From assembly GCA_000091205.1 (NCBI GenBank), contig AP006490.2: a stretch of 64,000 nucleotides of DNA, one strand, 5' to 3'. The stretch is from Cyanidioschyzon merolae. Lineage: Eukaryota. This document shows, piece after piece, positions 2,793 to 43,345 of the stretch. The translations under genes and the position numbers were made by a program. The notes under the pieces are model-generated. The model was not told the DNA's origin. It saw nothing but the letters and a program-made list of their open reading frames with translations, and ran no database searches. Within the stretch, counting starts at the first letter, position 1; each line of letters opens with the position of its first letter.

Positions 2793-5154
2793 CTAGAACG
2801 CTGTAGTCTCTACAAATGCGCCCTTGAATATGGAACCTTTCATTGCTACTGAAGTCAGACAGCCGAGCTTTTGGTGCCACAGCTCGAGACGGCTGCGTGC
2901 ACCCCTCTGTAACGCAGGCGTCGTGCCGCCGAACGCTACCCCAGCGAAGTGCGAGCTCGTGCGCACGGCTTTAGCGCCTTTTGCGGCAAACTAGGTGCGC
3001 TGGTCTCGACGCTCACCTTGGGCTACGTCGACATTCGAACGATATTCATCCTTACTGCCGCTGCTGCCGTCATCGGTTTCCTGGCGACGTTCATCTTCCT
3101 TCCGGATGCAACCGGGTTGGATCTGCGCGAACATGACTGGGAATGGGACCTGACTCTTCGTAACCACGCTGAGCTGTACGGCGGCGAGGCCGCCAATCTA
3201 CGACATCTGTCGCTCTGCGAACGCTGGCAAGGCAGAGGCAAACGCTACACGCCGCACTGGCGAGCCCAGTTGCGCAAAGAGGAACGTTCAAGTGATGCAG
3301 CGGCAACCAAGCTAGCAACACCGCCGATCGCGGCGAGCACCCTCATACCGTCTACTGCTCCTGACAATCGCTGAGCATCGAGCGAACGATCCGGTACGAT
3401 GATACGGAGTATGGATGCCGTGCGCGTTGTAAAGGATCAAGTGATATCTATTGACGCTGAGCGAAAGCGTGAGCGACGTACAACTTGACACTTGGGCGCA
3501 GCAGCGCGACGACACGAGCCATGTTCCCGTTTCGAAACGCGAGCACAGCACGAAGGTATCAGCAGTACCAGCGGGTGACTGCGGTAGAACGAGCACTCGC
3601 GCTGCCTGGCAGCGTCTCGCGCATCGCATGGAACTGGAACTCGTGCGTTGCGTTTACGACGAAAGCGCTACACCTGGATCCACCTAAAATGGAATAGGTC
3701 TCATAATTTGGACGCGCTCTCTAAAGCTCGAGACTGTTTCCACTGCCGCCAACACTAGTGTGTGCGGGGATTTTCTGCAACAGCGCCCGTTTGCTCTCTC
3801 TTATTTCAGATTTTAGATACGCCCGTCTCTCCTTTCTTTGCGGCTCCGATGTCAGCAGTGAAAGCACGATGGCGGTAGCGTCAGCATCCCGATTCGGACG
3901 CTTCTGGTTGTTTGCGACGCATTGCGTTCACGGACGGGAGATGCAATCTACGGTTCGCTTGCCATTTCGAGCCTCTTGGTATGCAACTTCTGTGCAAACT
4001 CTCTAGCTGTGGCACTTGGTTGTGGTCAGGCCCTCCCGAATGCATGTGTCAGACCTGCCCGTGCTCCGAGCGCTGCTGTGTCGCGCGTCCAGGCTCGCTG
4101 CGTCGCTCTGTTCATACCCCTTCGGATCCAGAAGGCTCCATTGGATGCTGTTCTCGTTTTCAACGCTCAGTGCTGCATCCAACGATCTGGGGCTTCTTCT
4201 GAGTGATGTCCTCCGGGAGTATTCTGTCTGGTGCACGGGCGGTTGCAGGCTATTCCCGCTGACCGAGGATGTATGGAACGTGATGAATTCCATCATAAAT
4301 CGAATACCAAAAACAAAATCCAGGCTGGAGATCATAAGCACAAGTGTCTGCCCGTCACCGTTCCCATTGTGCAAAGCGATGAAGACGCTCTCCGCTGGAC
4401 CCAGTGGATGCGATGACTCAATTCCGAAGACAAGAGCCTTTTCGATGCAAACAGAAGATACGGAAGCGTTTGGGAGCGTGTCACCCGAAATGCAGCATGC
4501 CGGTGCTGTCGAATGCAGTTGTGTCACTGGTCACAGCCACAGGAGGGTTTGTCTTTCGAACGCAATCGAATATTTGGGTGAGAAACTCAGGGACTTTTCG
4601 GCTTGAGCTGGCGAAGAACGCATCCTGGAATGACGCCCCGTTTTTTGATTCCCCTTCAATCCCACATCGCCTATAACGTTCCTTAGCGAGAGATCCATAA
4701 AATTAAAGCACGCGCGATTTGAACATCCTGCACATAAGGAACGGAGAAGACCGGAGGCTTATCCATATGGACTGACGATTGATATCCTTTGTTTCACGAA
4801 AACTAGTTCGAAGGAGGCGTGAAACGTCCTCATTCCGGCCACGTACCGAATTCCAGCGGCAAAGCGTCGAAAGAGCCACGTCGAACAGCGTGACATGAAT
4901 CCTGAGGCTACTTGTATGCGTCCGTAAGCTGTTACTTTTTGCACGTCGAAAACCGACTTTGCACATCTAAATTTTCGTTCGAAAAATACTCCGAGATGTA
5001 GGAACAAAGCACAGCATCCCGTGGTGCACTTCACTCGGATACGTATGAAGCGTATGCCGCTCTTCGACGAACGCTAGCTCAGCTTGTCTGCTGCTTGCTG
5101 ACCTCGAGGCGACCAGTGAGCGCCTCGAAGCACTCGAGTTGTCACGCCTAGGGT

Positions 5155-5796
5155 ATGGGAAGCACGCAGGATGTGCTTTTGATGAAACGTGAACTTCGAA
5201 AGCGCATGCGGGAGCTGCTTCGGCAGGTGTCAAGGAACGATTTGCGAGAGCGTTCCGCGGAAGCCTGCCGACAGCTCACCAACTCGGAGGTGTTTCGGTC
5301 TGCACGAACTGTAGCGGCATTCTGCCACATGCCGACTAGCGAAGTGGAGACGACTGATTTGCTTGCCGCCTGTTTTGCTGAAGGGAAACGCGTTTTTCTG
5401 CCCCGTGTGGATGAAGGATCAGTGCGAAAGATGTTGTTTTTGGAGGCCCACGGTCTGCAGGACGTCGAGAGCTGGCCCCTGAACGCCATGGGTATTCGGG
5501 AGCCGCCTTCTACGTGGAACGGACAAGTCAGAAGAGAAGTGCGCACGCTGGTTGAGCGAGAGCGAAAACCTCTCGACCTCATTGTCGTGCCCGGACTCGC
5601 CTTTGACACGTTCGGTCGTCGACTGGGTCGCGGCAAGGGCTACTACGACACCTTTCTGGCGACGTGTGAGCATTTGCATCACGAGATGCAGCTTCCTCCG
5701 CCTCGAAGAGTTGGTCTTGCGCTTTCATGCCAGATGGTCACCGAGGTGCCGGTATCAGCACATGATCAGGTCGTGGAGGCAGTCTTTTACGCTTGA
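5155..5796 (+). CDS. 5-formyltetrahydrofolate cyclo-ligase (MTHFS family)
   Basis: ORF contains KRELRKRMRELL... and LIVVPGLAFDTFGRRLGRGKGYYDTFLA, the C-terminal signature of 5-FTHF cyclo-ligases. TGA stop. True start may be an internal Met (MKRELRKR at about 5185). Confidence 0.75.
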   Translation: MGSTQDVLLMKRELRKRMRELLRQVSRNDLRERSAEACRQLTNSEVFRSARTVAAFCHMPTSEVETTDLLAACFAEGKRVFLPRVDEGSVRKMLFLEAHGLQDVESWPLNAMGIREPPSTWNGQVRREVRTLVERERKPLDLIVVPGLAFDTFGRRLGRGKGYYDTFLATCEHLHHEMQLPPPRRVGLALSCQMVTEVPVSAHDQVVEAVFYA

Positions 5797-6726
5797 GGTG
5801 TCCGGCCATACCATGGAACGCTATGGCAAACGGGCACGCAGCTATAGCCATAGACGCTCGTACGCGCGCAAGCTTGACGATGAACGATAGCCCCGGGAAG
5901 CGCGAGCGTAAAAGCACTGACTCGGCACCGTGCACGATACAGATACCGCTGAACCTATTCATCACTGCATCGAAGCCGCAAGGCGAACTTTATCCGATCA
6001 AAACGATTGCTGAAGACTGCATGCACGACTAGAGGAGCTAGATGAAGGAACCTCTTCTGCAGGTGCATGCTCGCACTGCGTCCTATGCTGAAAAGCAGAT
6101 CCACCAACAATTCATGGGGAAGCGTACATTGCCACTGAGCACTTCACTATCCGAAAGCATCCTTCGGATGGAGTCCTTTGCCAAAACCGCGACACGACAG
6201 AGCGCTGATGGCAATCATTTCAGAAGCGTGATTATTTGACGTATGTGCGTTGCCGCGACAATAGAGCCGGCTAGGTTCGGGGATCTGGTATCATCGTAAA
6301 GAACGCAGTGCAATTCTGTGTCTTCGCGCATTGTTTTGCCCCGGTGGCATTGCACAAAGAAGTCCCTGCGTCTGAGGCAAGGCCTCGGGGTACACGCTGC
6401 ACCCGGGTCTCTGATGCCAGTAATGCTGGAGTGCTGCACTGCAGCGCACACAGGCTCACCCCTGGATGCAAAAGGCGCGTGTTCCTCGCAGCGTTTATGA
6501 TGCGTTTTCCCAAACCATGCGACAGTTTATCAAGGCCGCATCCAGAGGGCATGCACAGTCTGCGTTCCTTCAAGTATCGGGATTCTGCTGGCATAGACAC
6601 AACCACGCATCCGTGCGTACAGAGCTGGTGGTGCGATCGGTATTCGCCCAGGTGCCTCAGAGGCTGTGCAAGGCTCTCCCGCGCTCAACCATTCCACCAC
6701 CTGCCATCGTTGCGCCATCGGACTCA

Positions 6727-8100
6727 TTACAGCGCCCAGTCCTCTTCATCCAAATCAGATTCATCATCTTCTTCCTGGTCTAGTGATGCGATATCGATTT
6801 GGTATCGCAGAATACCTCCAATGCCACCAAAACCTTTCACGAACTGACTGCCCTCTGCGGTTCGATCTGTCACCAAGTCCAGATGTGCTCCGAATCGCTT
6901 GTAGTTTTGCGCGAGCCAGTCCACCAGGGACTCTGACTCTTTGATTTCCATGTCTGGTCCGCCGTCCTTGGCCGTATCACTCGCCAACTGATCCAGCTTC
7001 TCCTTCTGAACGATCCGCACAGTCTCTTCGCCCGACTGTGGGTTCATCAAGACAACACGGTCATACTCGAGGTTCTCCCAGACAATTAATTTCTCTACTG
7101 CGCCCATTTCCAGCGCCTTCATGGTATCGTCGACCCCGTAGCAATATTACCCAGTATCCAGTGCGATCTGGTCATAAAATTCCTTCAAAAGCCGCTTCTC
7201 ACGTACATATTTCACGTTTGACAGACTGTCAGCAGCCAGTTCAATCGCTTGATTGAGACCAACCTCACCGCCCTAGCTGATATCTACGACCGCGATCACT
7301 TTGGCCTGTAGACGGGGGTCGAACAGGTCGCTGCGTGCGAGCTCATTCTTAAAGTCCGCGGAACCAGCCAGCACGATGCCGCTCACATTAACTTTGTCGC
7401 CATCGGGAATAAAGAGCCGCACCGCATCTTCGCCAACACGTCGTAGATAGTTATGCCGTTTTTCCATGCGGAGACGCGCAAAACGGAGCGCGGACTGACC
7501 ACCTCGACCATGCTTCTTCGGCAAATCGACCGTGAAACGATGCAGAATCTCGCGCGTATTCCCCGAAAGTACAGCGGAAAGCGCCCCATTCCCGTCGATG
7601 ATGATGAACCCGAACTTTTCATCACCTTCAAGCAGATTCATCAGTGGTTCTACGTGGAACCGCGAGTCGCAATAATACAACGACGTGTTGATCGGCTTGT
7701 GTGCCTCGAAGTCGATGGTCACTTGTTTCTCGCCCTTGTCCGTTAGAACAGTCCCACAGTAAATTGCTAGACCGTTCGGTGGAACTTTGTTGTAGAGCTT
7801 AAGGCGCTGTTGCGTAGATGTGATAGCAGACAACACGGAAAGTCGGTTGACACGGGACTTGATGTTGGGGGCTGTTCCCGCTTCGTCTGCGAGAAGTTTC
7901 CCAACCTTTGCAACTTGGTCGCCCGGTGGAATCAGTAACGAAATCATGGACGTGCCGTTACCACGTGCTGCCTCCAAGCCTTTGAGCAGTTTTTTAATGC
8001 GGAACATGGTTACCGCCCGATCCTCATCGTCCTATTCGTGGTTGTTCGACGGCAGTGCGGCGCCCACGGCAGCAGCAGCTACCGTCGTGATGGATGCCAT
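6727..8100 (-). CDS. eRF1: Eukaryotic peptide chain release factor 1 (eRF1/ETF1/Sup45 homolog). The single continuous frame is interrupted by in-frame TAG (8032-8034, N-terminal extension), TAG (7273-7275) and TAA (7147-7149)
   Basis: ORFs 7273..8007 and 6727..7122 are in the same frame, and the 150 nt between them also translate in that frame into eRF1 sequence ([41 protein letters not shown][TAA]YCYGVDDT). NIKS (TAPNIKS), YxCxxxF (YYCDSRFH) and GGQ ([15 protein letters not shown]) motifs are present. The C-terminal domain and acidic tail are conserved. Terminal TAA is immediately followed by TGA. Confidence 0.85.
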
Positions 8101-8607
8101 GCTTAGCGGGAAAGCACACGAACGCGACTCTCTGAACGCGTAAAAAGTAATCTCTATGCGATGAAGGCTTTTTGCTCTGCCTAAGAGTCACCCTGGTTTT
8201 AACGCAACAGCACCACCAGTGCTAGACAACGCGTAGCCGAACACTGCTGCCACCCGGTGAGAAGACCCTGGGTCGAGCGCGCATTGTGGCAGCCTTCGCC
8301 GGCGCGCCGCATCATCACAACGTCTTGGGAGAAGAGCGCTTTTCACACAGTGCTTCAGGATGTTGTTCGGTATAGCAGAGACCTGATTGCGGTAGGGAAT
8401 CGAAACAGGTTTCCAAGCGACAGCTTGAACGGCACGGTTCTAGTTCGACAGTTGCACGCAGCCTGCTGCGTTAAAAGCGGAGGAAAGCGCTTTTTCGCTT
8501 GGAGCAGGATTTGCTGCCTGTTGCAGCGAAAGAAGATTCGCTGAAAACGACGCTTTGGGCTAGCGTTCTATCGCCGAACTGGTGTTGTTGCAACGAGTAA
8601 ACTCAGC

Positions 8608-9651
8608 ATGCGGCTATTGTTGCAGCGTTGGAGCCAAACGATGCGGCACGGGAGCCGCAACGCGCTCGGGATCGTGAGGCTGCGATCCTTTCCTGGTTGC
8701 CTCTCTGGGTCGGAAAGTCGATCACACTGGAGGCCAGTCACGGTATGGAGCACGTGTGCAGCCGTCATCGCGGCGAGCTTAGCGAGCGTTCAACGCCCGG
8801 AATGGCGACCGTGGCTCTGCTACGCTGAGGCGTCCACCTCGCTAGAAAGTACACACAACTTCACGGCTGCTACGGAAAAAGTTGCACCCTTGAGCGATGC
8901 AGCGGAACCGGCAACAATACTGTGGAAACAACTGCCTGACTCGCTTGCAGAGCTGCGCAAGGCCGACATCGTGCTTTACCAATATGAAACATGTCCATTC
9001 TGCAATAAACTCCGGGCCTATCTGGACTATTGGCGAATACCGTACAAGGTTGTCGAGGTGAATCCAGTAGGCAAGAAGGAGCTAAAATTCAGCTCCTATC
9101 GCAAAGTACCCATTCTGGTGGTGAACGGCACACAACTCAACGACTCTGCTGCTATTATCAAAGCACTGGCGCGCATCACGGACCCGGACCGTGCGTTAAA
9201 CACGCAATGGTTCGACTGGATCGACTCCTGGTTTGTGCACACCTTACCACCAAATATATACCGCACCCGTCATGAGGCGCTGGAAACGTTTGACTACATC
9301 ACGGAAAAGGAGAAATTCTCGCCGTGGCAGCGCTTCACGATTCGCTACGTGGGTGCTGCGGCCATGTATTTTGTGAGTCGCCGCCTCAAGAAGAAGTATC
9401 ATATCGTCGATGAGCGCCAAGCACTCTATGATGCATGTCGTGACTGGCTCCAGGCTGTCGGTTGGCCAGAACGTCGTTTTCTGGGAGGTGCACGACCATG
9501 TGCTGCAGACCTGGCCATGTTTGGCGTCCTTCGCAGCATCGAGGGTTTCACAGCGTTTCATGAGCTCGCGGCCAATGTGCCGGAGATCGTTCAATGGTAT
9601 CGGATCATGAAGGACCAGGTGGGTCCGTCTGCGCGCATTGATTCGATGTAG
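8608..9651 (+). CDS. Prostaglandin E synthase 2-like protein (glutaredoxin/GST-fold, PTGES2 family), probably mitochondrial
   Basis: LYQYETCPFCNKLRAYLDYWRIPYKVVEVNPVGKKELKFSSYRKVPILV...LNDSAAIIKAL and C-terminal FLGGARPCAADLAMFGVLRSIEGFTAF align closely with human PTGES2 ([32 protein letters not shown]...FSSYRKVPIL...[24 protein letters not shown]). TAG stop. Confidence 0.75.
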   Translation: MRLLLQRWSQTMRHGSRNALGIVRLRSFPGCLSGSESRSHWRPVTVWSTCAAVIAASLASVQRPEWRPWLCYAEASTSLESTHNFTAATEKVAPLSDAAEPATILWKQLPDSLAELRKADIVLYQYETCPFCNKLRAYLDYWRIPYKVVEVNPVGKKELKFSSYRKVPILVVNGTQLNDSAAIIKALARITDPDRALNTQWFDWIDSWFVHTLPPNIYRTRHEALETFDYITEKEKFSPWQRFTIRYVGAAAMYFVSRRLKKKYHIVDERQALYDACRDWLQAVGWPERRFLGGARPCAADLAMFGVLRSIEGFTAFHELAANVPEIVQWYRIMKDQVGPSARIDSM

Positions 9652-10375
9652 AAAAGTTGCCGAATTTTCTGGTGAACTGATTACCTGCAGAACGCAAAGA
9701 ATGGAATTTTTTATCTATTTTGATGGATTGAGGATCGAAAACAATGCAGTGTTGCGTGTTGAACGCGAACGGCACAAAGAATGCAACGTTATCGATCTGG
9801 ATTGATTGTGGGTCTGGGCTGCGCAGAACGGTCTGGAAGATAGACGAGTCACCTGTGAGCACCCTCCATATCCTGAGCAAAGTACTTCGTCATCCGTGGC
9901 GAATCGTGTGCATATCTTGGATTTGTCATATGGGCAATTTTGATTGGTAGCCTGGTGCATTGCTGGTACACGTCATCCACCGAGATGCTTTGACTGTCTC
10001 ATACCAACAACCCATTCGCAAGAACGCACACGGCATCGTGTTTTGTTCCCGTAGCGGGAACTTCCGGTAGTAACCTCAACTGAGGAAGGAGCCGCTCGCT
10101 CGTGCTGCGCCCAAACCTCCAGCTGGGCATCATCATTTTTCATATCTCTGTTCAGTGCGACGAGCATGTAAAGGCAAAACTCATCAGAGATAGGCAGACG
10201 AACTAGGCACTTCCCTAGTAGCGAGGACTCTCGTTTAAGACGCCGAGTTGCCGGTGCGTCCTGCAACGTGCACCAGCGCTGTTCTCTATCGCCATCCGCT
10301 GGCTCACGCGGTACACCCAAACCTAGTCTGCGGGAAACTTACGCAAAGTTTCCAGGATCATAGCTTTGGGGCTCC

Positions 10376-10693
10376 TCACTCCCGAGTCGCGCTGTGCGTG
10401 ACCTCTTTTCGCTGGGTTGGCATCCCCAGCGACCGAACGAGGACGACGTTTTCGCCTTTGAGGAGGATCGTCCCTAGAGCAACCGTCCGCCGCTTATGCT
10501 TTGCAGTACTTCCCCACTGCTCCACGGTGTCGACCAGAACTAGATTGGTGTGTTCGTCGAAGCCGCGCAAGGTGCCTTCCAGAGAGTATCTGGTGTTTTC
10601 GAATAACCAGACCTCAACGCGGGCTTGTTGGCGCGCCAGCGTTGCTAACAACTGCTCTGGAACTATCCGTCTGTCCAGAGCGTCCTTCGGCAT
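10376..10693 (-). CDS. Sm-like (LSm) small nuclear ribonucleoprotein family protein
   Basis: 105-aa ORF with an Sm fold pattern (VEVWLFENTRYSLEGTLRGFDEHTNLVLVDTVEQ...LGTILLKGENVVLV). TGA stop. The C-terminal tail is slightly longer than typical. Confidence 0.55.
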   Translation of the reverse strand: MPKDALDRRIVPEQLLATLARQQARVEVWLFENTRYSLEGTLRGFDEHTNLVLVDTVEQWGSTAKHKRRTVALGTILLKGENVVLVRSLGMPTQRKEVTHSATRE

Positions 10694-10949: not shown

Positions 10950-11600
10950 TTAGCTTGCCGCAGCGCTGCGTGCCTCGCATTCAGCACAAGCATCTCCTGA
11001 TATTGATACCAGCGTTGAGGTCTCGGTTCATGGACTCCATGCGTTTGTTGCCGCTGGTTGATCTCACCAATGATAGGAGACCAGAACTCGTGTACGCTGT
11101 GCCATTGGGTGCTCTGTCAGCTCTTCGTGCTGATTTGTCGACGAAATGCTCCGCTGGCCTCGCTCCAACTCAACGTCCTAGGGTGTATATTCCAGCTCAT
11201 CCCTTCGATTTTTCGAAAATGAACGCATTTGCTTATAGCCTGAGATGAGAACCTTCCCGCATCGAGCAGCACATGCGGAATAAAGACCAAATGTGCCCCG
11301 GTTGGTCACCATGTGCTGAACGCTTCATCAATTCGCCCGGTGGAGCGATCGTGACGATTCAGGACCCCAAACTCTCCTTCTATGGGGATGAACCACGGGT
11401 GACAAGAAGGAATGAAACCAGCTCTACCCCTCGATAGAATTGGCAAGTGCTCGAACTGAAGCAGAACGGCTGAATACCACTGTGTCCAATAGAAGGACCT
11501 TACCAGACGTTTGGGACAAGTCTTCAATGACTCGACAAAAAGAGGGCGCTGCTGCATGAGTGTTCTCTTCAGCGGAACTGAGGCAGCCAAATGAATCCAC
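10950..11600 (-). mobile_element. Degraded fragment (copy 4) of the TnpB/Fanzor-like element family, minus strand, frameshifted
   Basis: The minus-strand translation gives VELERGQRSISSTNQHEELTEHPMAQRTRVLVSYH and, after a frameshift, GNKRMESMNRDLNAGINIRRC. These match copy 1 ([39 protein letters not shown]...[21 protein letters not shown]). The plus-strand ORF 10712..11248 is the mirror image of the same region. Confidence 0.5.
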
Positions 11601-11633
11601 CGCAGCTAGAACAGATGATGATGTCGACGTTCT

Positions 11634-12173
11634 CTACGATTTCGAGCGTACGAGCAACGGGCTCCCGCTCAGCAAGTATTCATCTGCGCTGCGATTGTCT
11701 CGTTTGAAGCAAGTCTCATCGAGTGAGAAAATAAACTGATGTTCCTGTGCTTCATACCGATCGCGACGTTCCAGGAACGCCGTGCCTGCGATTTCGGTGG
11801 AAGCTGGCCGTGAATGAACTAGCACTTTATTGCGATTGGATCCCGGTGTTTTCAGGATCACGCGAATAAGCTGTTGAGAAACAGAGACGCCCGTGGTGGC
11901 TACTATGGACGCATTTGCTTCCCGTAAATTGATCAACTGGTCGTTTTCTATCACTGAGTGCAGGCAGGCTTTGAGAATATCAGGTTTCGGCCCGGAGCGC
12001 ATATACTTGTTTCTTTCAGTGCTCGTCAAGCATCTGCGTATAGTGGTATGATTGACATCGAGGAGCAACGCAATTATCATTGCATTGTTCAGTGAAGAAT
12101 ACATATGCCGTATGCAATTCCTCCACAATCTATACAGAACATTACCTAGTGATTTCAACCTCCTCCTACACAC
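11634..12173 (-). mobile_element. Tc1/mariner-like transposase N-terminal fragment (paired-like HTH plus start of the DDE domain), truncated
   Basis: ORF aligns with Tc1 transposase N-terminus: TGVSVSQQLIRVILKTPG versus TKVSISTVKRVLYRHNLKG, and FIFSLDETCF versus VLWSDETKIELF (first D of the DDE triad). It lies directly upstream of, and on the same strand as, Fanzor-like copy 4. Confidence 0.45.
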
Positions 12174-12712
12174 CGCAGCCGCGATGAAAGAAAATTGAGT
12201 TGAAAGACTATCAACCGAAGCGCCTTTACGTCGTAACAGCGTCTGGTACTCGAAATTCTAACGCAGCCACGTACCAGCAGCGGATCGAGACGGTGAACGG
12301 ACGCACCAGCGTATACCTCTATGTACGGTATTCGCCTCTACCAGATACGCAGCATGCCTGCGATCAATGCGAACAGGCATCGAAGTGCCCTTGGTACCCA
12401 AGTTTTGCCGTCCGAGCATGCCTTCCTCGAAGACGCACCTTGCATCTATCCTCAGATCGTCGAAAACGACACCAAACATGCTTCTGCACAGCGTCCTGTC
12501 GTACAAGCGCGCCAAGTAGGCGTTTGTTTTCAGCACGGTGCTGTCTGACGCTTGGACTGCACGAGTGTAGATGCTACCGATCCCGACCAGGTCCACGGCA
12601 CCTGATAGCTGACGAGCAGGTTCCGCTGCGACTCCAAGCCCGGCAATTGGCAAGCACACGAGTCGCGCTCAACTTGCAGAGCGCTGTGTCGATCGCCGAT
12701 GCTGCCCTTGGT

Positions 12713-14599
12713 CTAACGATTCAGAGTGGCAATGTTGACAGCAGGCACGCGCCGCTGACGCACAGCTTGAGGATCGCTTCGATTCGAGACCACGGCGACA
12801 ATACGCGACCATTTCAGCGCACCGAATGCGACTTCTCCGTCACTGGCCTGCAGCTCAACTAGGCGTCGTGCAACGCGCATCTTAGCTTCCAGGACCTCGA
12901 GGGAAGCGTCCGTCGGGTCGCAGAGCCAATCCACAAAGCCCGCCATACTAGCCAACGCGACAACTCCGATTCTCGACAGACCTAGCGCAGCGAATACCGC
13001 CGCAGCAGCGAGCCGCTCTTCTTCCGAAGGATGCCGTGCACAGTCCAGGACAATGGGCAGTGCATTCGTGAACGCCTTGACGGGATCCGCATCCCTGATC
13101 GCATCAGTGAACAGATGCAGCACCCTTTGCTGCCGAAATTCGAGGTCGGATTCGGCGGCTCCGTACCCTGAGACGGCTGCTGATGAAAGCGGCTCGTCGA
13201 GACCTGCCAGGAACACACTCAAAGCACGCAAGGAGGCCACTCGAATATCGCACACGCTCGCCGTTTGAATGAAACGAAGCGTTAGTTTCAAGGTGTCAAC
13301 GTCCGCAAGCAGCACGTCCATGCCGCGTTCACAGAGCCCCAGAGCGCCAACCGCGGAGATCAGATGCACCAGCAGTGTCGTCCGACGAACTTGATCAAGT
13401 CGTACGGACCAGTGTGCTGTCTCAGTCTCGCCATCTACCACGTGAAGCAAGAGAAAGCGCCCAAGAATCTCTACGAGATTGGCGTTCATCCAAGCGTGGA
13501 AGGCGCAACGACTGGACCCGGCACTGGTGCGCACGAACCTCAGAATCCCACACATCCAAATAAACCAGCGTTCCGCCAAGTCGCTCGAGGCAGGCTCGTC
13601 TGGCGCCAACAAATGGGCAAGGTGTTGGCGTAGCAGCACATCGAATACCGAAATTTGGTCGAGCAACTCGGCTGCTATTGCACTGCGTTGCATAAAAGCC
13701 CCAAGCACATCCAGCAAGTTCAAGCGGAGTAGCAAGTCCTCATCCAAACGAACAGGAGCTGCGATTTTGGCTACAAGCACGGTTGGCAACAGCCGACGTG
13801 CGGCAATCTCTGCAACAGACGAGTAGTCGCAGATCTCAAGCAGGAAGCTCAAGGCTCGGATATGCGCGACCGCACCCGCTGCACCCGAGAGCATCTCCTG
13901 TACGAGGATTTGCGCGCCTCGTGCTTCGCTGAAGAGCACAACTGCGCCGCGGAACGGCTTCAGCTGTACCAGGTTCTTCAGGATTTTTTCACAAAGTCCC
14001 GCAGCTTCGGTGGATGGATCATCACGGAAGCTCAGCAGCACCAGTGACAGGATATCGCTGGCGTGCTGTGCAGTTGTGCTGGGAGCGTCCACTTCTGGAC
14101 CTGGCGCTTGTGCGGCCTCTATCTCCGGACGAAGCTCGTTCGTACTTTCAAAACGTTCGATAATGGTGTCTGCAACTTGCTGACAAAACGCTTCAGGCAA
14201 GTCATTCCGTTCAAGAAGGAGACAAAGCAGACGGAGCGCAGCTGTGCGTACCAGCGGGTACCGGCTGCTCAGACCGAGCTGGATGAGCTGGAGCACCTGC
14301 TCTGTAGGTACGACGTGACGAACTCGGGCACTTGTTGCAGAGAGCTTGACCAGTTTCTCCATTGTTTTCGTTAATACCCGGATGGAATCAAATATGTTGT
14401 CGGATGGTACCGCGTCGCTGTCTGAAGCCTCGAGCGACGCCCGCACCGCGTACTCCTCCAGTGTCCAGCCCAGCAGCGGTAACGGCAAACGCTCCAGCAA
14501 GTCCAGTGCCGCACACTCCGACAGTGCTCCAGCGTCTACATATTCCCTCACTGTATCCAATACTTTATCGGGAGTCCAGTCATTGTGGTGAGCGTTCAT
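12713..14599 (-). CDS. Hypothetical HEAT/ARM-repeat-like helical protein (628 aa), function unknown
   Basis: Long uninterrupted ORF with Leu-rich amphipathic helical repeats. No specific family recognised by eye. TAG stop. Confidence 0.4.
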   Translation of the reverse strand: MNAHHNDWTPDKVLDTVREYVDAGALSECAALDLLERLPLPLLGWTLEEYAVRASLEASDSDAVPSDNIFDSIRVLTKTMEKLVKLSATSARVRHVVPTEQVLQLIQLGLSSRYPLVRTAALRLLCLLLERNDLPEAFCQQVADTIIERFESTNELRPEIEAAQAPGPEVDAPSTTAQHASDILSLVLLSFRDDPSTEAAGLCEKILKNLVQLKPFRGAVVLFSEARGAQILVQEMLSGAAGAVAHIRALSFLLEICDYSSVAEIAARRLLPTVLVAKIAAPVRLDEDLLLRLNLLDVLGAFMQRSAIAAELLDQISVFDVLLRQHLAHLLAPDEPASSDLAERWFIWMCGILRFVRTSAGSSRCAFHAWMNANLVEILGRFLLLHVVDGETETAHWSVRLDQVRRTTLLVHLISAVGALGLCERGMDVLLADVDTLKLTLRFIQTASVCDIRVASLRALSVFLAGLDEPLSSAAVSGYGAAESDLEFRQQRVLHLFTDAIRDADPVKAFTNALPIVLDCARHPSEEERLAAAAVFAALGLSRIGVVALASMAGFVDWLCDPTDASLEVLEAKMRVARRLVELQASDGEVAFGALKWSRIVAVVSNRSDPQAVRQRRVPAVNIATLNR

Positions 14600-15355
14600 T
14601 CAGCAACAGGTTATCACGCTTTGAGATAGACATATCCAGAAGCAATCTCCTGATCGGCGGCGGGGCGCAGGACAGCCGCTGCGCGTGCACGCGCACCTGG
14701 CAGATCCGGCGGGCACGAGACACGACGCTCTGGTCGCTCCTGAGGGGAACAGTGATCCTGATCATTGGCGTGCTATTCTACTGTAAAAGTTGTATTCGCG
14801 TTGAGGTCGTAGCAAAGTATAGGTTTTCTGTTCCATCCTATTCCGACCCTCAATTGAGTATATTCAAGTGTTTTTTCGAAGTAAATAACAGAAGCGTTCA
14901 AAGAGCGTTCGTTTTCATAAAAAATTAAAAGGAAAGGCATGGAAATGGAAGTGGAGGATCCCGGAGGGCCGATATCGCCGGCTCTCGGAAAAGAAGGATA
15001 AACATGGCGGAGCAAAGAGGAACAGGAAGTGATGAAGAATCAAAAGGGGGCGAGGTTCTACGTCGAAGGCGGCAAGAAAGGCAACTGTACGGCGATATTG
15101 TAGTGAAAGCCTGTGTTCTTAAATATATCAAGGATCCGTAGAAGGAAAAGTTGCCGGACGCCATCAAAAACCGTCTCGAGTCGTACTCCATGAGTATGAT
15201 AAAGGCTTCTTCAGGACCGACGCATTTGGTGAGGGAGATGTATCGCTACGTGACGAACATGGAAACGGTCGAGATTCCGGACGAGTTTTTCGACAACACA
15301 TTTTTTCGTCACTTGATGCTTGGCACAGGGGAAGAGCGGAAGGATATAAGAGCTA

Positions 15356-17506
15356 GTGCATGCCCCTCACGAACAACATCCCTTTTGCAGGTTCGAGGGT
15401 AATCGAAACAAGGGGGACTGGGGTATTTACGACTATGGGGCGATGAAGTACATCACGAACCTGAAGAACCATTTGAAAACGAACCTCGAACGTTTCATGA
15501 TACGCGCCGTGTTTGCACTCTACCGGGGCCTGTCTCGCAAAGGAATATGGGCGATTATCAATGGCATCACGAACGATCGAAACTATGGAAATGAGGTCGA
15601 ATTCGTTGACAAGAAGGAGTCAAACCAGAGCACGAATGAGAATTCCGTCATCCGTGCGGTTATCGAAGAGCATCGTGCGGTACTGGGGCTGGCGAATCCA
15701 ACAGACAAGATATCAGAGTTGAAAAAAGATAGGGAAAGATACGATCGCCTCGTTCTGCGCTATTTTGTGTTTCTGGACCGAGAGCTCGAACGCAAAGCGG
15801 AGATGAAGCTGAGTGAAGAGACAAATGAAGAGTGGGAGAGACGGAAGGCTTTCCTAATGGGTAAGCGCTTCGACGTGGTTCCAATGTGCAAGATCAAGTC
15901 ACATTTTATGACTATCGACTCCGGCGTCCTTTACGGCATCATGAGGGAGATCTGTCCGGAGTTCGATGTAAGGAAGACAGAGTTCCCCGGTGAAAACCGT
16001 GAGACGTACTGGAAGAATATCTTCGATTTCAAACGTCGCAAAGTCAGCAAACAAAAGGTATTCACTGGGTTGATCGAAACCGAAAGAGTAGCCTTGTGTA
16101 TACACTATCGGAGGTTGAAGAAAGATCGGCCAGTCCCTCCCTCGGCTGCGTCCGTCACGAAAAATGAAGAAAAGGAGGAGGCTGGTCCTGCGAAGCAGGA
16201 GGTAGAGGATAACGACCTTGTCGTTCACGCGGCGAAGAATGAAGAAAAGAAGGAGGCGGGTCCTGCGACGCAGGAAGTGGAGGGTAACGACCTTGTCGTT
16301 GACGTGACGAAGGATGAAGAAAAGAAGGATGCGGATCCTGCGACGCAGGAGGTAGAGAATAACAGCTTCATCGTTAACGCGACGAAGCATGAAGAAAAGA
16401 AGGAGGCGGGTCCTGCGATGCAGGAGGTGCATGAGAAGGACCTTCTCGTTGGCGCGGCGAAGGATGAAGATGAGAAGGATGCGGATCCTGCGACGCAGGA
16501 GGTAGAGAATAACGACTTTATGGTTGACGTGACGAAGCATGAAGAAAATGAGGATGCGGGTCCTGCGACCCAGAAAGTGCAAGATAACGACTTTGTCGTT
16601 GGCGCGGACCCTGGGAATACGAATATCATCACCATTGCAGCACCGAAGCGTGCGGAAGATCGTACTGACGGCAACTTGCGTCAGAAAGACATGCGTCTTT
16701 TGAGGTTCTCGAGAGCGAGATACTATCGAGAATCGGGAATCATGAATGCGAGGAAGAAAATCGAGACTTGGAATTCAGGAATGAAAGAGCACCTGGAAGC
16801 TGTGAGCGAGGTAACGAGCCGAGGAGCGGACTTTGAAGCTTTTCGGAAATTCATGGAAGTTCGTGTTGCGCATTGGGATGCTCTGTGGGAGGAGTATACC
16901 AAGCCCCGGTGGGCTCGACTGCGTATGAATCTATACGGTGGGAGGCAGCGCGCATTCCCAAATTTTTTCAATCAGTTGAGTGCCCTGAAGGAGGATGAAA
17001 GTCAGAGGCTCGTAGTAGCGTACGCAGCAGGGCGCTGGAAGACCCAAAAAGGGACTACTCCGGCCCCAACGACAAGAACGTTCAAGGAGTGCGCAAGGCG
17101 TTTCGTTACGATACCTGTAGATGAGTTCCGAACGTCGTATACGCACCATGAACTGGGGTGTACACTCCAGAGGGTGGAGATGGAAAAGTGCCAGCGGAGC
17201 CCTGAGGACACAGCAAAGCACGGACTGCTGACGGAGGAGCAAATGGAAAGGATGGCAAAAGTTCGTGGACTGCTTGCATTAGTGAGTACAACCAGTGATG
17301 GTAAGAAACGTATGGAATTCGTGAACCGTGACTTTAACGCCGCTATCAATATACGGAAATGTGCGGTGCTGGAGAAGAGACCTCCAGAATTGACAGGAGA
17401 GAATTTCGTTGGACAACCTCTCAAAGTCGAACTATATGAGAAAAAGTTGGAGGCAGTTGTAGGCGGCCGGTCGAGAAAGGCTGGGAGGCGTCTGCACGTC
17501 AGGTAA
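15356..17506 (+). CDS. TnpB/Fanzor-like RuvC-fold nuclease protein (transposon-encoded, IS605-OrfB/Cas12-related family)
   Basis: RuvC-I-like [15 protein letters not shown]. TnpB-like linker [26 protein letters not shown]. Zn-finger-like segment [11 protein letters not shown]...EKCQRS. Diagnostic RuvC-III motif [18 protein letters not shown] near the C-terminus. TAA stop. Confidence 0.7.
16160..16609 (+). repeat. In-frame 75-bp (25-aa) tandem repeat x6 inside the Fanzor-like ORF
   Basis: Units [150 protein letters not shown]. The last unit runs into the RuvC-I strand. Copy 2 has a single unit. Confidence 0.85.
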
Positions 17507-17824
17507 AGAGTTTTGTCTAAGGCGCCGGTCGTCTCAACTGTACACTGGCACCATCGCCGGTGCATTCGACAGATGGTGTCCATGTTGTACTGAATTTACC
17601 AGTCTCCGGCGTCGTGCAGCCGCGGCCCCGCTGCAGCACTGGCAGTGTCGCCACCGCCGTCCTTTCGTTCGCTCATCGGGTATCGTCTCCAGTCCGACTT
17701 GCTAGTGGCCCGCCTTCCCTGTAGAGGAAACAGGGACTGGACTGTTCGTGACCTCGCTACCGAGTTCCGGTCGCTGTTTGAGTTCTCTTGCAGTTGCGGT
17801 TTCCGCTAACTACTTGTCTTTCGC

Positions 17825-38264: not shown

Positions 38265-40330
38265 CTGAAAATAAACGTCTTTCTAAGGAAAAACGCTGCC
38301 ACCGGCGGGCGCAATACAGTCTTGGCGAGAAACCCGCCCTGGACAAGACTTCTCCAACTGACGTGCAGACGCCTGCCAGCCTTTCTGGAACGGGCACCCA
38401 CTACTGCTTCCAATTCTTTCTCATATAGTTCCATTTTGAGAGGCTGTCCGACAAAATGCTCTCTTGTCTACGCTGAAGGTCTGTTCTCCATCACCGCACA
38501 TCGCCTTCAATGGATAGCGGTATTTACGTCCCGGTTCTCAAACTCCATACGTTTCTTGTTATTGATCGTACTTACTGATGCAAGTTGTCCACGAACTTTT
38601 GCCATCCTTTCCATTTGCTCTTCCGTTAGCTGTTCGTACTTTTTTATATCTTCAGGGCTCCGCTCGCACTTTTTCATCTCAACTCTCTGGCGTGTACAAC
38701 CCAGTTCGTGGTTTGTATACGATGCCCGGAACTCATCGATGGGTATCGTAACGAAACGCCTTGCGCACTCTCTGAATGTTCTTGTCGTTGGAGCTGGCCT
38801 AGTCCCTTTTTGGGTCTTCCAGCGCCCTGCTCGGTACACTACTAAAAGCCTCTGACTGTCCTCCTCCTTCAAGGCGCTCAACCCATTGAAAAAGTTTGCG
38901 AACGCCCGCTGCATCCCCCAGTACAATTTCATAATGAAAAGAGAACACCGGGGCTTTGTATATTCTTTCCACAGCGCCTCCCAATGGGCAACACGAACTT
39001 CCATGAATTTCCGAAAAGCTTCCTAGGCCGCTCCGCGGCTCGTCACCTCGCTCAAAGCTTCCAGGTGATCATTCATTCCTGCATTCTACGTCTCGATTTT
39101 CTTGCTTGCATTCATGATTCCCGATTCTCGATGGTATCTCGCTCTCGAGAATCTCAACAGACGCATGTCTTTCTGAGGCAAGTTACCGTCAATGCCATCT
39201 TCCGCACGCTTGGGTACTGCGATGGTTACGATATTCGTGTTCCCGGGGTCCGCGCCAACGACAAGGTCGTTATCCTGGGGATTATACATTTCAGGGCCCA
39301 CCTCCATCTTATCTTCATGCTTCGTCACGGGCGAAGCGCAAGGCGCGATGGGACGATCCACCTTCAACCTCCGATACTGTACACACATGGCTACTCCATC
39401 GGTTTCGATCATCCCAGCGAATACCTTTTATTTGCTCACTTTGGGACGTTTGAAATCGAAGATATTCTTCCAGTACGTCTCACGGTTTTCACCGGGGAAC
39501 TCTGTCTTCCTTACATCGAACTCCGGACAGATCTCCCTCATGATGCCTTGAAGGACTCTGGAGCCGATGGTCACACAGTGTGACTCGATGTTGTTCAACG
39601 GAACGACGTTAAATTGCTTCCCCATTAGGAAAGCCTTTCGTATCTCCGACGCTTCATTTTTCTCCTCACTCAGCTTCATCTATGCCTCGCGTTCCAGTCC
39701 TCGGTCCAGGAACACGAAATAGCGCAGGATGAGGCGATCGTATCTTTTCTTATCTTTTTTTTCATCTCTGATAACTTTTCTGTTCGGTTCGCCAGCCCCA
39801 GTACCGCACGATGCTCTTGTATAACCCAACGGATTACAGGAGCTTCATTCTTTCTCCTGCGTGATGTCTTCTTGTCGAAGAATTCGATCTCCTGTTCATT
39901 CTGGCAATCCTTCGTGATGCCATTGATAATCGCCCATATTCCTTTGCGAGCGATGCCCGGGTAGAGTGCATAGACGGAGCGTTTCATGAAGCGTTCGAGG
40001 TTCATCGTCAAATGGTTCTTCAGGTCCGTATGGTACTTGATCGTCCCGTAGGTTTAAAGATCCGAATCACCCCTGTATCGTGTACCCTCAGGGCGGTACT
40101 CGGCGTGATTCTCGTGGAGGGCATGAACCCGCTCATTTCCCCTCCGCGTTTCCCCTGTGCCAAGCATCAGGCGACAAATCAAGGTCCTGTCGAAAACGCT
40201 TTCGAAATCTCGACTGGTTTGATGTCCGTCACTGCTGCTGTGCCAGGGAAACTTCGTGCGCCTGATCGCACGCTGGAATGTGTTGTCGACGGGGCGCACT
40301 TCGGTGCAATGGATGGAACGTTGCGGAGCG
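38265..40330 (-). mobile_element. TnpB/Fanzor-like element, copy 2 (inverted, frameshifted/degraded, single repeat unit). Boundaries are approximate
   Basis: Minus-strand ORF pieces 40054..40299, 39676..40011, 39428..39679, 39086..39412, 38507..39004 and 38252..38434 are colinear with copy 1 protein (LMLGTGE..., [11 protein letters not shown]..., [69 protein letters not shown]..., [23 protein letters not shown]). Conserved 3' tail is present. Confidence 0.65.
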
Positions 40331-40533: not shown

Positions 40534-42717
40534 TTACGCTGCATTCCCCGATTCTCTTTTCGCGAAAAGCTCGTACTCAACCTCTAGACTATCGTTTGTG
40601 GGATAGTCGGCTACAACCCGCTCGTACAAGTAGAGCGCATTCTCGTTCGTGACACTCTCGTCGATGTAGGCGCGTGCCTCGCGCAGCAGACGTGCGCTAT
40701 CTCGAGACAGACCCCACAGATGCAGCCGAATACCATAGCTCCTATACTGACGGGCTAGGGAGTCTAGCGCCTCTAGCGCTGTCGCGTCCCAGATGCGGCT
40801 ACCAGAGAAGTCGATGATCACGTGCTCATGGCCTTCGGCACGATCCCGTGCTGGGTCGAACAGACGACTGAAGCGCTCCGCCGTGCCAAAGAACAGCGGA
40901 CCGTCAATCCGGTATCCCCGCCATCCGCGCGTTTGCTCGTCCTCCGAAATAAAGCTCTGGGCGGTAATGCGTCGCGACGCTTTATAGGCAAAGACCAGCG
41001 CCGAGAATACCACACCAAACAGGACCGCCAGGGCGACGTTGCGCGTTGCTACAGTCATCAGGGCAACGCTCACAATGGTCAGCGAATCAGCGAGAGGTAT
41101 GGCACGAAACAAGCGCAGCGATGCCCATTCGAATGAGCCCAGCGCCACCAGCACCATAAGGCTTGCAATGGCTGGGACGGGAATCCGAATCATCAGTCCG
41201 CTCGGATTTCTCGCCAACACGAGAAGACACAGCGCCGCAGTCAGTCCAGAGAGACGCCCGCGTCCCCCTGATTTCGTGTTCAGAAGCGACTGGCCCAGGA
41301 GGCCGCAGCCGCCCACGCCACCGAATAAGCCCGCGGCGATATTCCCTGCCCCAAGCGCTAGACACTCCCGACGCGTGCTACCCCGCGATTCCGTGACTTC
41401 GTCTACCAAAGTCATGGTTAAAAGAGATTCCAAAAGACCGATGAATGCGAGACCAAGCGCGGTGCTCAGAATGGCCATCCATGCCAGCGGTGTTGACGGC
41501 AGGGCTGCCCAGGATACGCCAATGGCCCCTGACTGTGCCAGCGTGTCGCGCAAAAAGTCGCCAAGCCGCCGCACAGGCGCTTGCGTCACCTCCGCATAAA
41601 TGGATGCCACGAGGATGCCCGCTAGTGGGCTTGGGAGCCAACGCAACAGCTCAGCGAGGCGGTGCTGCCACCGATGGGTACTATCGGGGCGCCGGCGCTC
41701 TAGTCGCTGAATGATCAAGGGCCATACATGGGCGACTCCAGCGGCGAGCGCTGCGACGATCAACGCTGCACGCAACATGTTACCCTGGAGCCAGGGTGCG
41801 CCCGGGCTCAGCCCGGTTCCCGCTGGAAGCTGAAACGCATAGACCTGACTTGTCGCCGTCAAGATGGCGATGCCGCTGATGAATCCCAGAAAGGTAGGGT
41901 ACGATATCAGCCGCACAAACTTTCCCAAACGATAGATCCCGAAGAAAAGCTGGAGTATACCGCTGAGCACCACGGCGGCAGCGACCGCTGCTGCGCCGTA
42001 CTGTTGATAGAGAGGCGCTTGCAGAATAATGAGCGCTGCAGATGTTCCCGAGATCATGCCAGGGCGTCCTCCCAGTGCGGCAGTTATCGCACACAGGAGA
42101 CCAGTCGAGACGATTCCAGCGAGCGGCGGCACGCCCGTGGCCAACGCGCAAGACGCCGCCGCAGGCAGCAGCGCCATCGCCACCGTAATGCCCGCCAGCA
42201 CTTCCTCTACCGTCGAGCGTAGCGGATAGCGCGCTGTGCGTTCGTCCAAAATCCGACGCTCTCCAACGAAATAGCGCCCGATATCCTCACGTGGTGCAAC
42301 GAGCGGGAAGAGCCCTCGCTCACCAGGCTTGGGACGGTGCCTCGCTTCGGCGTCGGGGGTACCCCCTGGCGCCGAACCTGTCCCCCGTACGCGAGCAAGT
42401 GCTCCGCAGCGCGTACGCCGCCTCGCGCGGAACCCAGGCACCACCAGCGAGTTGCACTGGCTCCGGTTCCGTACGACGAAACGTACGCCGCTACCGCTGA
42501 AGGTATTCGTTACTATGAAACCGCCTAAAGCATTCTCAACGCCCATGTTCCGACGAAAGTACCTTGCGTGTCCAGTGAACAGGCAGTGCACAACAAGGCG
42601 CTCGTGCATTGCCGATGCTTCCGACGCGAGCGCTGAGATCCGTACATGCAATCTCGGATGGCGGGCAGTTTGATCTCCGCATGAATCTATAATGTGGGGA
42701 GTATCGGGCATTCGCAA
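40534..42717 (-). CDS. SulP-family sulfate/anion transporter. The about 150-aa N-terminal part of the ORF is probably upstream non-coding read-through, with the true start at an internal Met
   Basis: Multi-TM core (TVEEVLAGITVAMALLPAAASCALATGVPPLAGIVSTG...GGRPGMISGTSAALIIL...) plus C-terminal STAS-like region (YRIDGPLFFGTAERF...VIIDFSGSRIWDATALEALDSLARQY). TAA stop. Confidence 0.8.
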   Translation of the reverse strand: MRMPDTPHIIDSCGDQTARHPRLHVRISALASEASAMHERLVVHCLFTGHARYFRRNMGVENALGGFIVTNTFSGSGVRFVVRNRSQCNSLVVPGFRARRRTRCGALARVRGTGSAPGGTPDAEARHRPKPGERGLFPLVAPREDIGRYFVGERRILDERTARYPLRSTVEEVLAGITVAMALLPAAASCALATGVPPLAGIVSTGLLCAITAALGGRPGMISGTSAALIILQAPLYQQYGAAAVAAAVVLSGILQLFFGIYRLGKFVRLISYPTFLGFISGIAILTATSQVYAFQLPAGTGLSPGAPWLQGNMLRAALIVAALAAGVAHVWPLIIQRLERRRPDSTHRWQHRLAELLRWLPSPLAGILVASIYAEVTQAPVRRLGDFLRDTLAQSGAIGVSWAALPSTPLAWMAILSTALGLAFIGLLESLLTMTLVDEVTESRGSTRRECLALGAGNIAAGLFGGVGGCGLLGQSLLNTKSGGRGRLSGLTAALCLLVLARNPSGLMIRIPVPAIASLMVLVALGSFEWASLRLFRAIPLADSLTIVSVALMTVATRNVALAVLFGVVFSALVFAYKASRRITAQSFISEDEQTRGWRGYRIDGPLFFGTAERFSRLFDPARDRAEGHEHVIIDFSGSRIWDATALEALDSLARQYRSYGIRLHLWGLSRDSARLLREARAYIDESVTNENALYLYERVVADYPTNDSLEVEYELFAKRESGNAA

Positions 42718-43345
42718 TTTTTTTTTCAGTGAGTTGAGTGCCTTGAAGGAGGATGAAAGTCAAAGGCTCGTAGTAGCGTACGAAGCAAGGCGCTGGACGA
42801 CCCAACAAGGGTGTACACCAGATCCCACGACGAGAACGTATACGGAGTGCGCAAGGCGTTTTGTTATAATACCGGTAGATGGATTTCGAGCATTGTATAC
42901 ACACCATGAACTGGGCTGTACACTTCAGAGGGTCGAGATGGAAAAGTGCCAGCGGGGACCTGAGGATATAAAAAAAGTACGGACCGCTGACAGAAGAGCA
43001 AATGGAAAGGATAGCGAAAGTTCGAGGATTGCTTGCGTTAGTAAGTACAATCAACGGCAAGAAACGTATGGAGTTTGTGAACCGAGACTTTAACGCCGCA
43101 ATCAATATAAGGAAATGTGCGGTGAGAGAGGAAAGACCTCTCGGGTCGACGAGAGAGAATTTTGGAGGAAAACCGCTCAAAGTTAAACTATATGAGAAAA
43201 AGTTTGAAGCAGTAGTAGGTGGCCGGTCCAAAAAGACGGGCAGGCTTCTGCACATCAGTCGGAGACATTTCTTCTAGGGCGGCCCGGTCGCCACTACTGT
43301 ACACCGCTGGCGTCGTTCGCCTCCTGAACAGCGTTCGGTGTCGGC
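42715..43345 (+). mobile_element. TnpB/Fanzor-like element, copy 3. A 5'-truncated 3' fragment that begins at a poly-T tract
   Basis: About 90% nucleotide identity to copy 1 positions about 16962-17590. Encodes [20 protein letters not shown]... and [19 protein letters not shown] with frameshifts. Conserved post-stop tail is present. Confidence 0.65.

Follow-up and report, generated by a model that had tools for sequence, protein, structure and literature searches.

Release factor genes with premature stops and the chromosome 8 locus

Premature stop codons in the gene for the release factor eRF1 are known from the yeast Saccharomyces cerevisiae, where sup45 nonsense alleles can be viable, as termination is reduced and eRF1 can in this way partly rescue its own premature stops. 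In yeast the amino acids inserted at UAG and UAA by near-cognate decoding are Tyr, Gln and Lys. In lineages that have reassigned stop codons (ciliates, Mesodinium, Blastocrithidia and the rhizarian exLh) in-frame stops are found in many genes and the functional eRF1 itself is altered. Unprocessed, i.e., duplication-derived, pseudogenes are a further described system, in which neighboring genes and intergenic DNA are copied along with the gene, and an intact paralog is kept elsewhere.

We analyzed a window of 64,000 nucleotides from Cyanidioschyzon merolae 10D, which is part of chromosome 8 (locus tags CMH) and carries an eRF1 frame with three in-frame stop codons. Like the sup45 nonsense alleles, this locus has its premature stops in a gene whose product recognizes stop codons. 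However, in yeast sup45 is the sole copy and readthrough is needed to survive, whereas here an intact second copy is present, three stops stand in series and there is no sign of readthrough. As in the stop-reassignment lineages, TAA and TAG occur in frame at conserved sense positions and a motif in the N-domain of eRF1 is altered, but here the in-frame stops are restricted to one redundant copy and the standard code is used in the other genes examined. With unprocessed pseudogenes, in which nonsense and missense changes accumulate at a roughly neutral ratio, the locus shares the copied neighborhood, the intact paralog and disabling alleles that are polymorphic in the species. It differs from the usual case in that eRF1 is an essential and highly conserved gene that normally has a single copy, in that the copy is very young, being about 1% diverged and without indels, and in that the host genome is noted for its low redundancy (PMC1955436).

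The chromosome 8 eRF1 is most probably (about 90%) a young unprocessed pseudogene, derived from a recent inter-chromosomal duplication, with the functional copy on chromosome 13. As a duplicated pseudogene it would belong to a very well known kind of sequence and would not be conceptually new. The two chromosomes comprise 739,753 bp (chromosome 8) and 866,983 bp (chromosome 13; Table 1 of PMC1955436), and the genome as a whole is described as unusually compact (PMC1955436). Pseudogenes are not treated in the genome paper (PMC1955436), and a literature search gave no publication on a C. merolae eRF1 pseudogene or on this duplication.

The eRF1 frame and its intact paralog

An earlier note on this DNA, made from the letters alone, had described a 458-codon eRF1 frame with about 75% identity to human ETF1, in which a TAG and a TAA replace conserved Tyr and Lys codons without any frameshift. 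The central observation was confirmed, as all stops lie in one frame, coordinates and alignments are correct and no indel is present. The frame consists of 457 codons plus the terminal stop, and homology extends over all 457 codons from end to end, with 98% identity to the 10D paralog BAM80981.1, 90% to the related contig L001 and 65–66% to animal eRF1, so that the value given for the human protein was too high. A third TAG had been placed in an N-terminal extension upstream of the conserved MFRIKK start. Its position is right; however, translation truly begins further upstream, with the ATG at 8100 that corresponds to the start of the annotated paralog, and therefore this TAG is located inside the coding frame (Table 1).

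Table 1. Coordinates of the duplicated block and of the eRF1 frame in the window (position 1 is the first letter of the 64,000-nucleotide stretch; L numbers are related contigs).
Feature	Position	Strand	Remarks
Segmental duplication shared with chromosome 13	2919..10693		Minimum extent; right edge beyond 10693
Truncated sugar-transporter (MFS) 3' fragment	2925..3374	+	Last ~133 aa, still open; left edge of block
5-Formyltetrahydrofolate (5-FTHF) cyclo-ligase	5155..5796	+	Intact; BAM79867
eRF1 frame, probable pseudogene	6727..8100	-	One frame from ATG 8100 (MASITT...) to TAA
In-frame TAG, codon 23	8034-8032	-	CAG (Gln) in L003 and L006-L010; TAG in L011 and L012
S78P	7867..7869	-	TASNIKS to TAPNIKS, stop-codon-recognition motif; also in L006
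P133A	7704-7702	-	Pro in all six other aligned eRF1s
D159G	7626-7624	-	Versus chromosome 13 copy
F175S	7578-7576	-	Aromatic in all six other aligned eRF1s
In-frame TAG, codon 276 (245 from MFRIKK)	7275-7273	-	TAT (Tyr) in 8/8 related contigs
In-frame TAA, codon 318 (287 from MFRIKK)	7149-7147	-	AAA (Lys) in intact copies; TAA in L003, L011 and L012
Normal terminal stop TAA, then TGA	6727..6729	-	Same end in relatives (...DWVL, ...DWGL, ...DWEL)
Glutaredoxin/GST (prostaglandin-E-synthase-2-like)	8608..9651	+	Intact, ends with TAG; BAM79868
Sm protein E	10376..10693	-	Intact; BAM79869; chromosome 13 paralog BAM80979

In an alignment with PDB sequences codon 276 corresponds to Tyr and codon 318 to Lys of human eRF1. 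An alignment of seven sequences shows the same two residues in eRF1 from red algae, animals and fungi, where Gln stands for the Lys only in P0002 from the rotifer Adineta steineri. This 642-aa 'unnamed protein product' is an eRF1 in which the N and M domains are duplicated internally, which looks like a mis-assembly or a gene-model artefact and is unrelated to the window. The accessions on both sides of the eRF1 frame, BAM79867 and BAM79868, are consecutive and thus the frame itself has no deposited protein annotation. The exact 244-aa N-terminal fragment MFRIKK...VVDIS had no match in the databases looked up.

Strain 10D encodes an intact eRF1 of 457 aa on chromosome 13, BAM80981.1, which is known at the protein level and turned up among the proteins that cluster at 90% identity with the best eRF1 match. 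The search for a second paralog, proposed in the earlier note, was thereby answered within the same strain. The window copy is identical to BAM80981.1 in 448 of 457 positions, and the nine differences comprise three nonsense changes (Q23>TAG, Y276>TAG and K318>TAA) and the six replacements S78P, P133A, D159G, F175S, E347D and D453E. The absence of missense decay, which the note had also claimed, does therefore not apply. We infer that the intact chromosome 13 eRF1 supplies the termination activity.

A variant of the YxCxxxF region is common to all Cyanidioschyzon-like eRF1s (window, L001 and L002), including the intact ones. Near position 7700-7680 of the window a stretch of twelve residues replaces the usual YLCDNKFHTEAL, the form found in most eukaryotes. 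The clade with this variant still terminates at all three stop codons.

The duplicated block and the stages of decay

On chromosome 13 the gene for BAM80981 follows directly after those for Sm-E (BAM80979) and the PGES2-like GST (BAM80980). Because paralogs of the same neighbors, BAM79869 and BAM79868, accompany the window copy, the block of Sm-E, GST and eRF1 is present twice in 10D and the window copy lies within a segmental duplication. The GST paralogs BAM79868 and BAM80980 are identical in 344 of 347 residues (99%). Sm-E and GST pairs on both chromosomes, together with the two genomic contexts seen in the environmental contigs L009 and L010, show that the flanking genes were duplicated along with eRF1, hence the copy is no retrocopy. 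On chromosome 8 the accessions run from the parvulin gene (BAM79866) through the 5-FTHF cyclo-ligase, GST and Sm-E genes of Table 1 to CMH216C (BAM79870), and the genes beside eRF1 in the duplicated block are all intact.

In three other Cyanidiales species, represented by L001, L002 and L004/L005, the gene order is pyruvate kinase, Sm-E, GST, eRF1, 5-FTHF ligase and sugar transporter, where L001 stops short of the pyruvate kinase end. The eRF1 DNA of these species is 73–77% identical to the window. L009 and L010, both about 99% identical to the window, were obtained from a metagenome scan. L009 can be aligned to the window without interruption between 441 and 12080 and has the chromosome 8-type context, in which the transporter fragment connects the block to the parvulin gene. 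L010 is collinear with the window between 8281 and 2919, beyond which it runs into the 515 N-terminal residues that are missing from the transporter fragment; the block is thus joined to a full-length transporter as in the three other species. The left edge of the block was placed at about 2919-2925 because L010 leaves the window there for the full-length transporter. Two short metagenome contigs, L003 and L006, have their break at 3021, close to this edge. The fragment that remains in the window is 70% identical to the protein of a relative and lies directly next to the parvulin upstream region. Chromosome 13 probably represents the ancestral context, as judged for its flanks from L010 and from synteny.

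For the origin of the probable pseudogene the following course can be proposed. A block of about 8 kb, containing the 3' end of the sugar transporter, the 5-FTHF cyclo-ligase, eRF1, the PGES2-like GST and Sm-E, would have been copied from the ancestral locus to the site beside the parvulin gene. As the chromosome 13 eRF1 would have sufficed, the chromosome 8 copy would have been redundant and free to drift. K318>TAA would then have come first, followed by Q23>TAG and, last and in the 10D lineage, by Y276>TAG, and the drifting copy may also have gained its replacements at conserved residues, including S78P in TASNIKS. We infer both this order of events and the lack of function of the chromosome 8 copy. 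Transcription of this copy is plausible, given that the upstream intergenic region was duplicated with it, but ribosomes are predicted to terminate at the stops, so that this copy would yield no full-length protein. Its transcripts would meet an NMD pathway that is described as heavily derived in C. merolae (PMC6173133).

The proposed order is based on a comparison of the eRF1 region across eight contigs that are about 99% identical to the window (L003 and L006-L012). No stops are present in L006-L010, which include the chromosome 8-type L009, only K318>TAA is found in L003, both Q23>TAG and K318>TAA occur in L011 and L012, and the window carries Q23>TAG, Y276>TAG and K318>TAA. Judged from these alleles, the stops are polymorphic within the species and appear to have been gained stepwise. 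The comparison with relatives that the earlier note had called for gave sense codons at all three positions in L001, L002, L004/L005 and L006-L010. Y276>TAG was seen so far in the window record only, with eight related contigs compared. Several gene-caller products are cut at ...LDTG (P0125, P0127, P0128, P0131 and P0134) and C-terminal fragments of 131 aa occur in many JGI contigs, from which it follows that the K318>TAA allele is widespread. Gene callers have cut decayed alleles into pieces of 286, 345 and 131 aa, which are listed in the databases as 'peptide chain release factor subunit 1'.

Compared to L009 the window eRF1 shows six non-synonymous changes, three of them nonsense, and five synonymous ones, which are small counts. 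The changes found only in the window are four non-synonymous to one synonymous, with a neutral expectation of 3.2:1 and again few counts. As far as such numbers go, they point in the direction of relaxed constraint. That an indel is missing from 1.4 kb is expected, since the region as a whole contains only 2 gaps against 131 mismatches over 11.6 kb, from which about 0.2 indels are predicted in eRF1. Nonsense changes are over-represented. Under a uniform mutation model 3.6% of the possible substitutions lead to a stop, which gives P of about 0.006 for 3 of 11, and after the first stop the excess is 2 of 10 with P of about 0.05; the excess is mild to moderate, and it is inflated as the locus itself was picked for its stops. 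Chance, this ascertainment, or selection that silences a harmful extra copy may account for it. The argument that a recent pseudogene with three nonsense hits but neither indels nor missense decay would be statistically odd is therefore weakened: missense changes are present, indels are not to be expected and the nonsense excess is moderate. A RIP-like mutation process was considered and rejected, as C>T occurs only in CAG>TAG, i.e., in one of three nonsense changes, the remaining two, T>G and A>T, being transversions.

The stop-free haplotypes show a pattern of their own. P133A and F175S, both at conserved sites, are also present in the stop-free L008, L009 and L010, of which L010 has the ancestral context with the full sugar transporter. 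Within the group of haplotypes that lack stops, synonymous and non-synonymous differences come in about equal numbers. The two loci may accordingly have exchanged sequence by gene conversion, or the copy that drifts may differ from strain to strain.

Further features were observed in the surroundings of the block. Just past its Sm-E end, a decayed ORF at 11328-12668 (-) contains in-frame TAGs and gives a weak match to the DDE_3 transposase (E=0.009, under the Pfam threshold); it could be related to the insertion of the block. CMH216C (12713-14599, -, 628 aa) has a paralog on chromosome 17, CMQ418C (BAM82258), with at least 90% identity, and for the sulfate permease at 40534-42711 (-, 725 aa, BAM79879) a paralog of 670 aa, BAM79957, is encoded on chromosome 9. 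With such paralogs on other chromosomes, this part of chromosome 8 looks like a mosaic of duplications between chromosomes. The telomere repeat AATGGGGGG is absent from the window. An interspersed repeat is present in three copies of about 78–83% identity at 15250-17545 (+), 38315-40232 (-) and 42675-43304. One copy contains an open ORF of 687 aa (15443-17506) with tandem acidic repeats, which is unannotated in 10D and has a ten-residue C-terminal motif that resembles TnpB/Fanzor RuvC motifs. Searches with this ORF against PDB and Pfam gave nothing significant, the sole hint being PF07282 (Cas12f1-like TNB) at E=1.5. The repeat may be the 253-copy 'WSV486-like' element (PMC1955436).

Genetic code, readthrough and silencing by selection

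A change of the genetic code would be the most far-reaching explanation for in-frame stops in eRF1, and as their cause it is refuted. Fourteen ORFs of the window (nine of ten in a first set and five further ones), translated with the standard code, are exactly identical to 10D proteins in the range BAM79866-BAM79885 in an exact-sequence look-up, and these genes terminate with TAA, TAG or TGA. RPS4e, VPS35, EF-1alpha, parvulin and other window genes likewise end with TAG, TGA or TAA, and in Sm-E, glutaredoxin/GST and 5-FTHF cyclo-ligase no in-frame stop is found when they are aligned to relatives. The earlier note's own judgment, that a genome-wide code change is unlikely, is thus borne out. 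ORF lengths also led to the rejection of a variant code: when a code that stops at TGA alone was compared to the standard one, the long genes proved to be open with the latter already. That the organism decodes TAG and TAA as sense by any route, be it a variant code, a suppressor tRNA or mRNA editing, has practically no probability left. Such decoding might be suspected from the altered TASNIKS in the eRF1 pseudogene and from the clade's YYCDSRF where YLCDNKF stands elsewhere. However, YYCDSRF is common to relatives that use all three stops normally, the intact paralog BAM80981.1 has the canonical TASNIKS, the fourteen genes and the aligned neighbors speak for ordinary termination, and ARAGORN detected no tRNA gene, and hence no suppressor tRNA, within the 64-kb window. 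Errors of sequencing or assembly are highly improbable as well. Y276>TAG, being seen in the window alone, would fit an error, but Q23>TAG and K318>TAA recur in the independent JGI assemblies L003, L011 and L012, which confirms two of the three stops independently. In addition, one JGI product is exactly identical to the 131-aa fragment that follows K318>TAA in the window, the flanking genes match their deposited proteins exactly and the 10D sequence is finished and gap-free (PMC1955436). The note's option of sequencing errors is consequently not supported.

It is very unlikely that the chromosome 8 copy works via readthrough, either programmed or as an autoregulatory sensor in which low eRF1 activity would allow ribosomes past the stops and thereby lead to more eRF1. 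The frame without indels and the upstream intergenic region duplicated alongside would be in line with a working gene, and the rescue of sup45 nonsense alleles by eRF1 itself and the Tyr, Gln and Lys insertions in yeast would provide a precedent. Leaky contexts known from other systems are CARYYA and a C at position +4. The stops are followed by other sequences, TAG-GAC-GAT, TAG-GGC-GGT and TAA-TAT-TGC, which match neither of the two. The stops are moreover polymorphic, being absent from the chromosome 8-type L009 and from the three other Cyanidiales species, three of them in series would multiply an already low readthrough, and an intact paralog exists. As the stops are unconserved, not in leaky contexts and in series, and as TASNIKS (S78P) and other conserved residues are mutated, programmed readthrough or autoregulation is not to be expected; together with the intact paralog and the standard code this leaves the note's suggestions of readthrough, autoregulation, a suppressor tRNA or editing without support. 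Another explanation, which is unlikely, accepts the copy as a pseudogene and makes its stop-rich pattern adaptive: an extra, mutated or truncated eRF1 could be harmful and the duplicate silenced by selection. The protein truncated by K318>TAA would lack a part of the C-terminal eRF3-binding domain, and Q23>TAG and Y276>TAG would have been favored as they abolish a toxic product. The excess of nonsense changes (both P-values given above), the location of the later stops upstream of the first one and the intactness of the other three genes of the block are in agreement with this. However, the P-values come from a locus picked for its stops and the numbers are very small. With short genes and a divergence of only about 1% across the block, intactness of its other genes is expected under drift too. 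The broader idea that the chromosome 8 copy is not inert, with stops selected against a toxic extra factor or with a transcript that acts as a sensor of termination coupled to readthrough or NMD, is quite improbable.

With the chromosome 8 copy read as a young unprocessed pseudogene, which is the option of the earlier note where a functional paralog exists at another site and the pseudogene is very young, the observations fit together, and this possibility is supported by the intact BAM80981.1 in a paralogous block of about 99% identity. A false alarm is thereby cleared, as stops in a release-factor gene here signal neither recoding nor autoregulation nor a code change. For practical work, read mapping, knock-out design and the counting of eRF1 genes in C. 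merolae have to reckon with two loci that are about 99% identical, and gene callers used on metagenomes split the decayed copy into 'release factor' pieces.

For the organism, the locus means that a genome with a name for minimal redundancy has recently acquired a second, inter-chromosomal copy of an essential translation factor, and that environmental contigs keep the stages of its decay, in which none, one, two or all three of the stops are present within one species. If selection against a harmful extra eRF1 were true, natural strains would show a dosage-sensitive duplicate in the course of being silenced adaptively.
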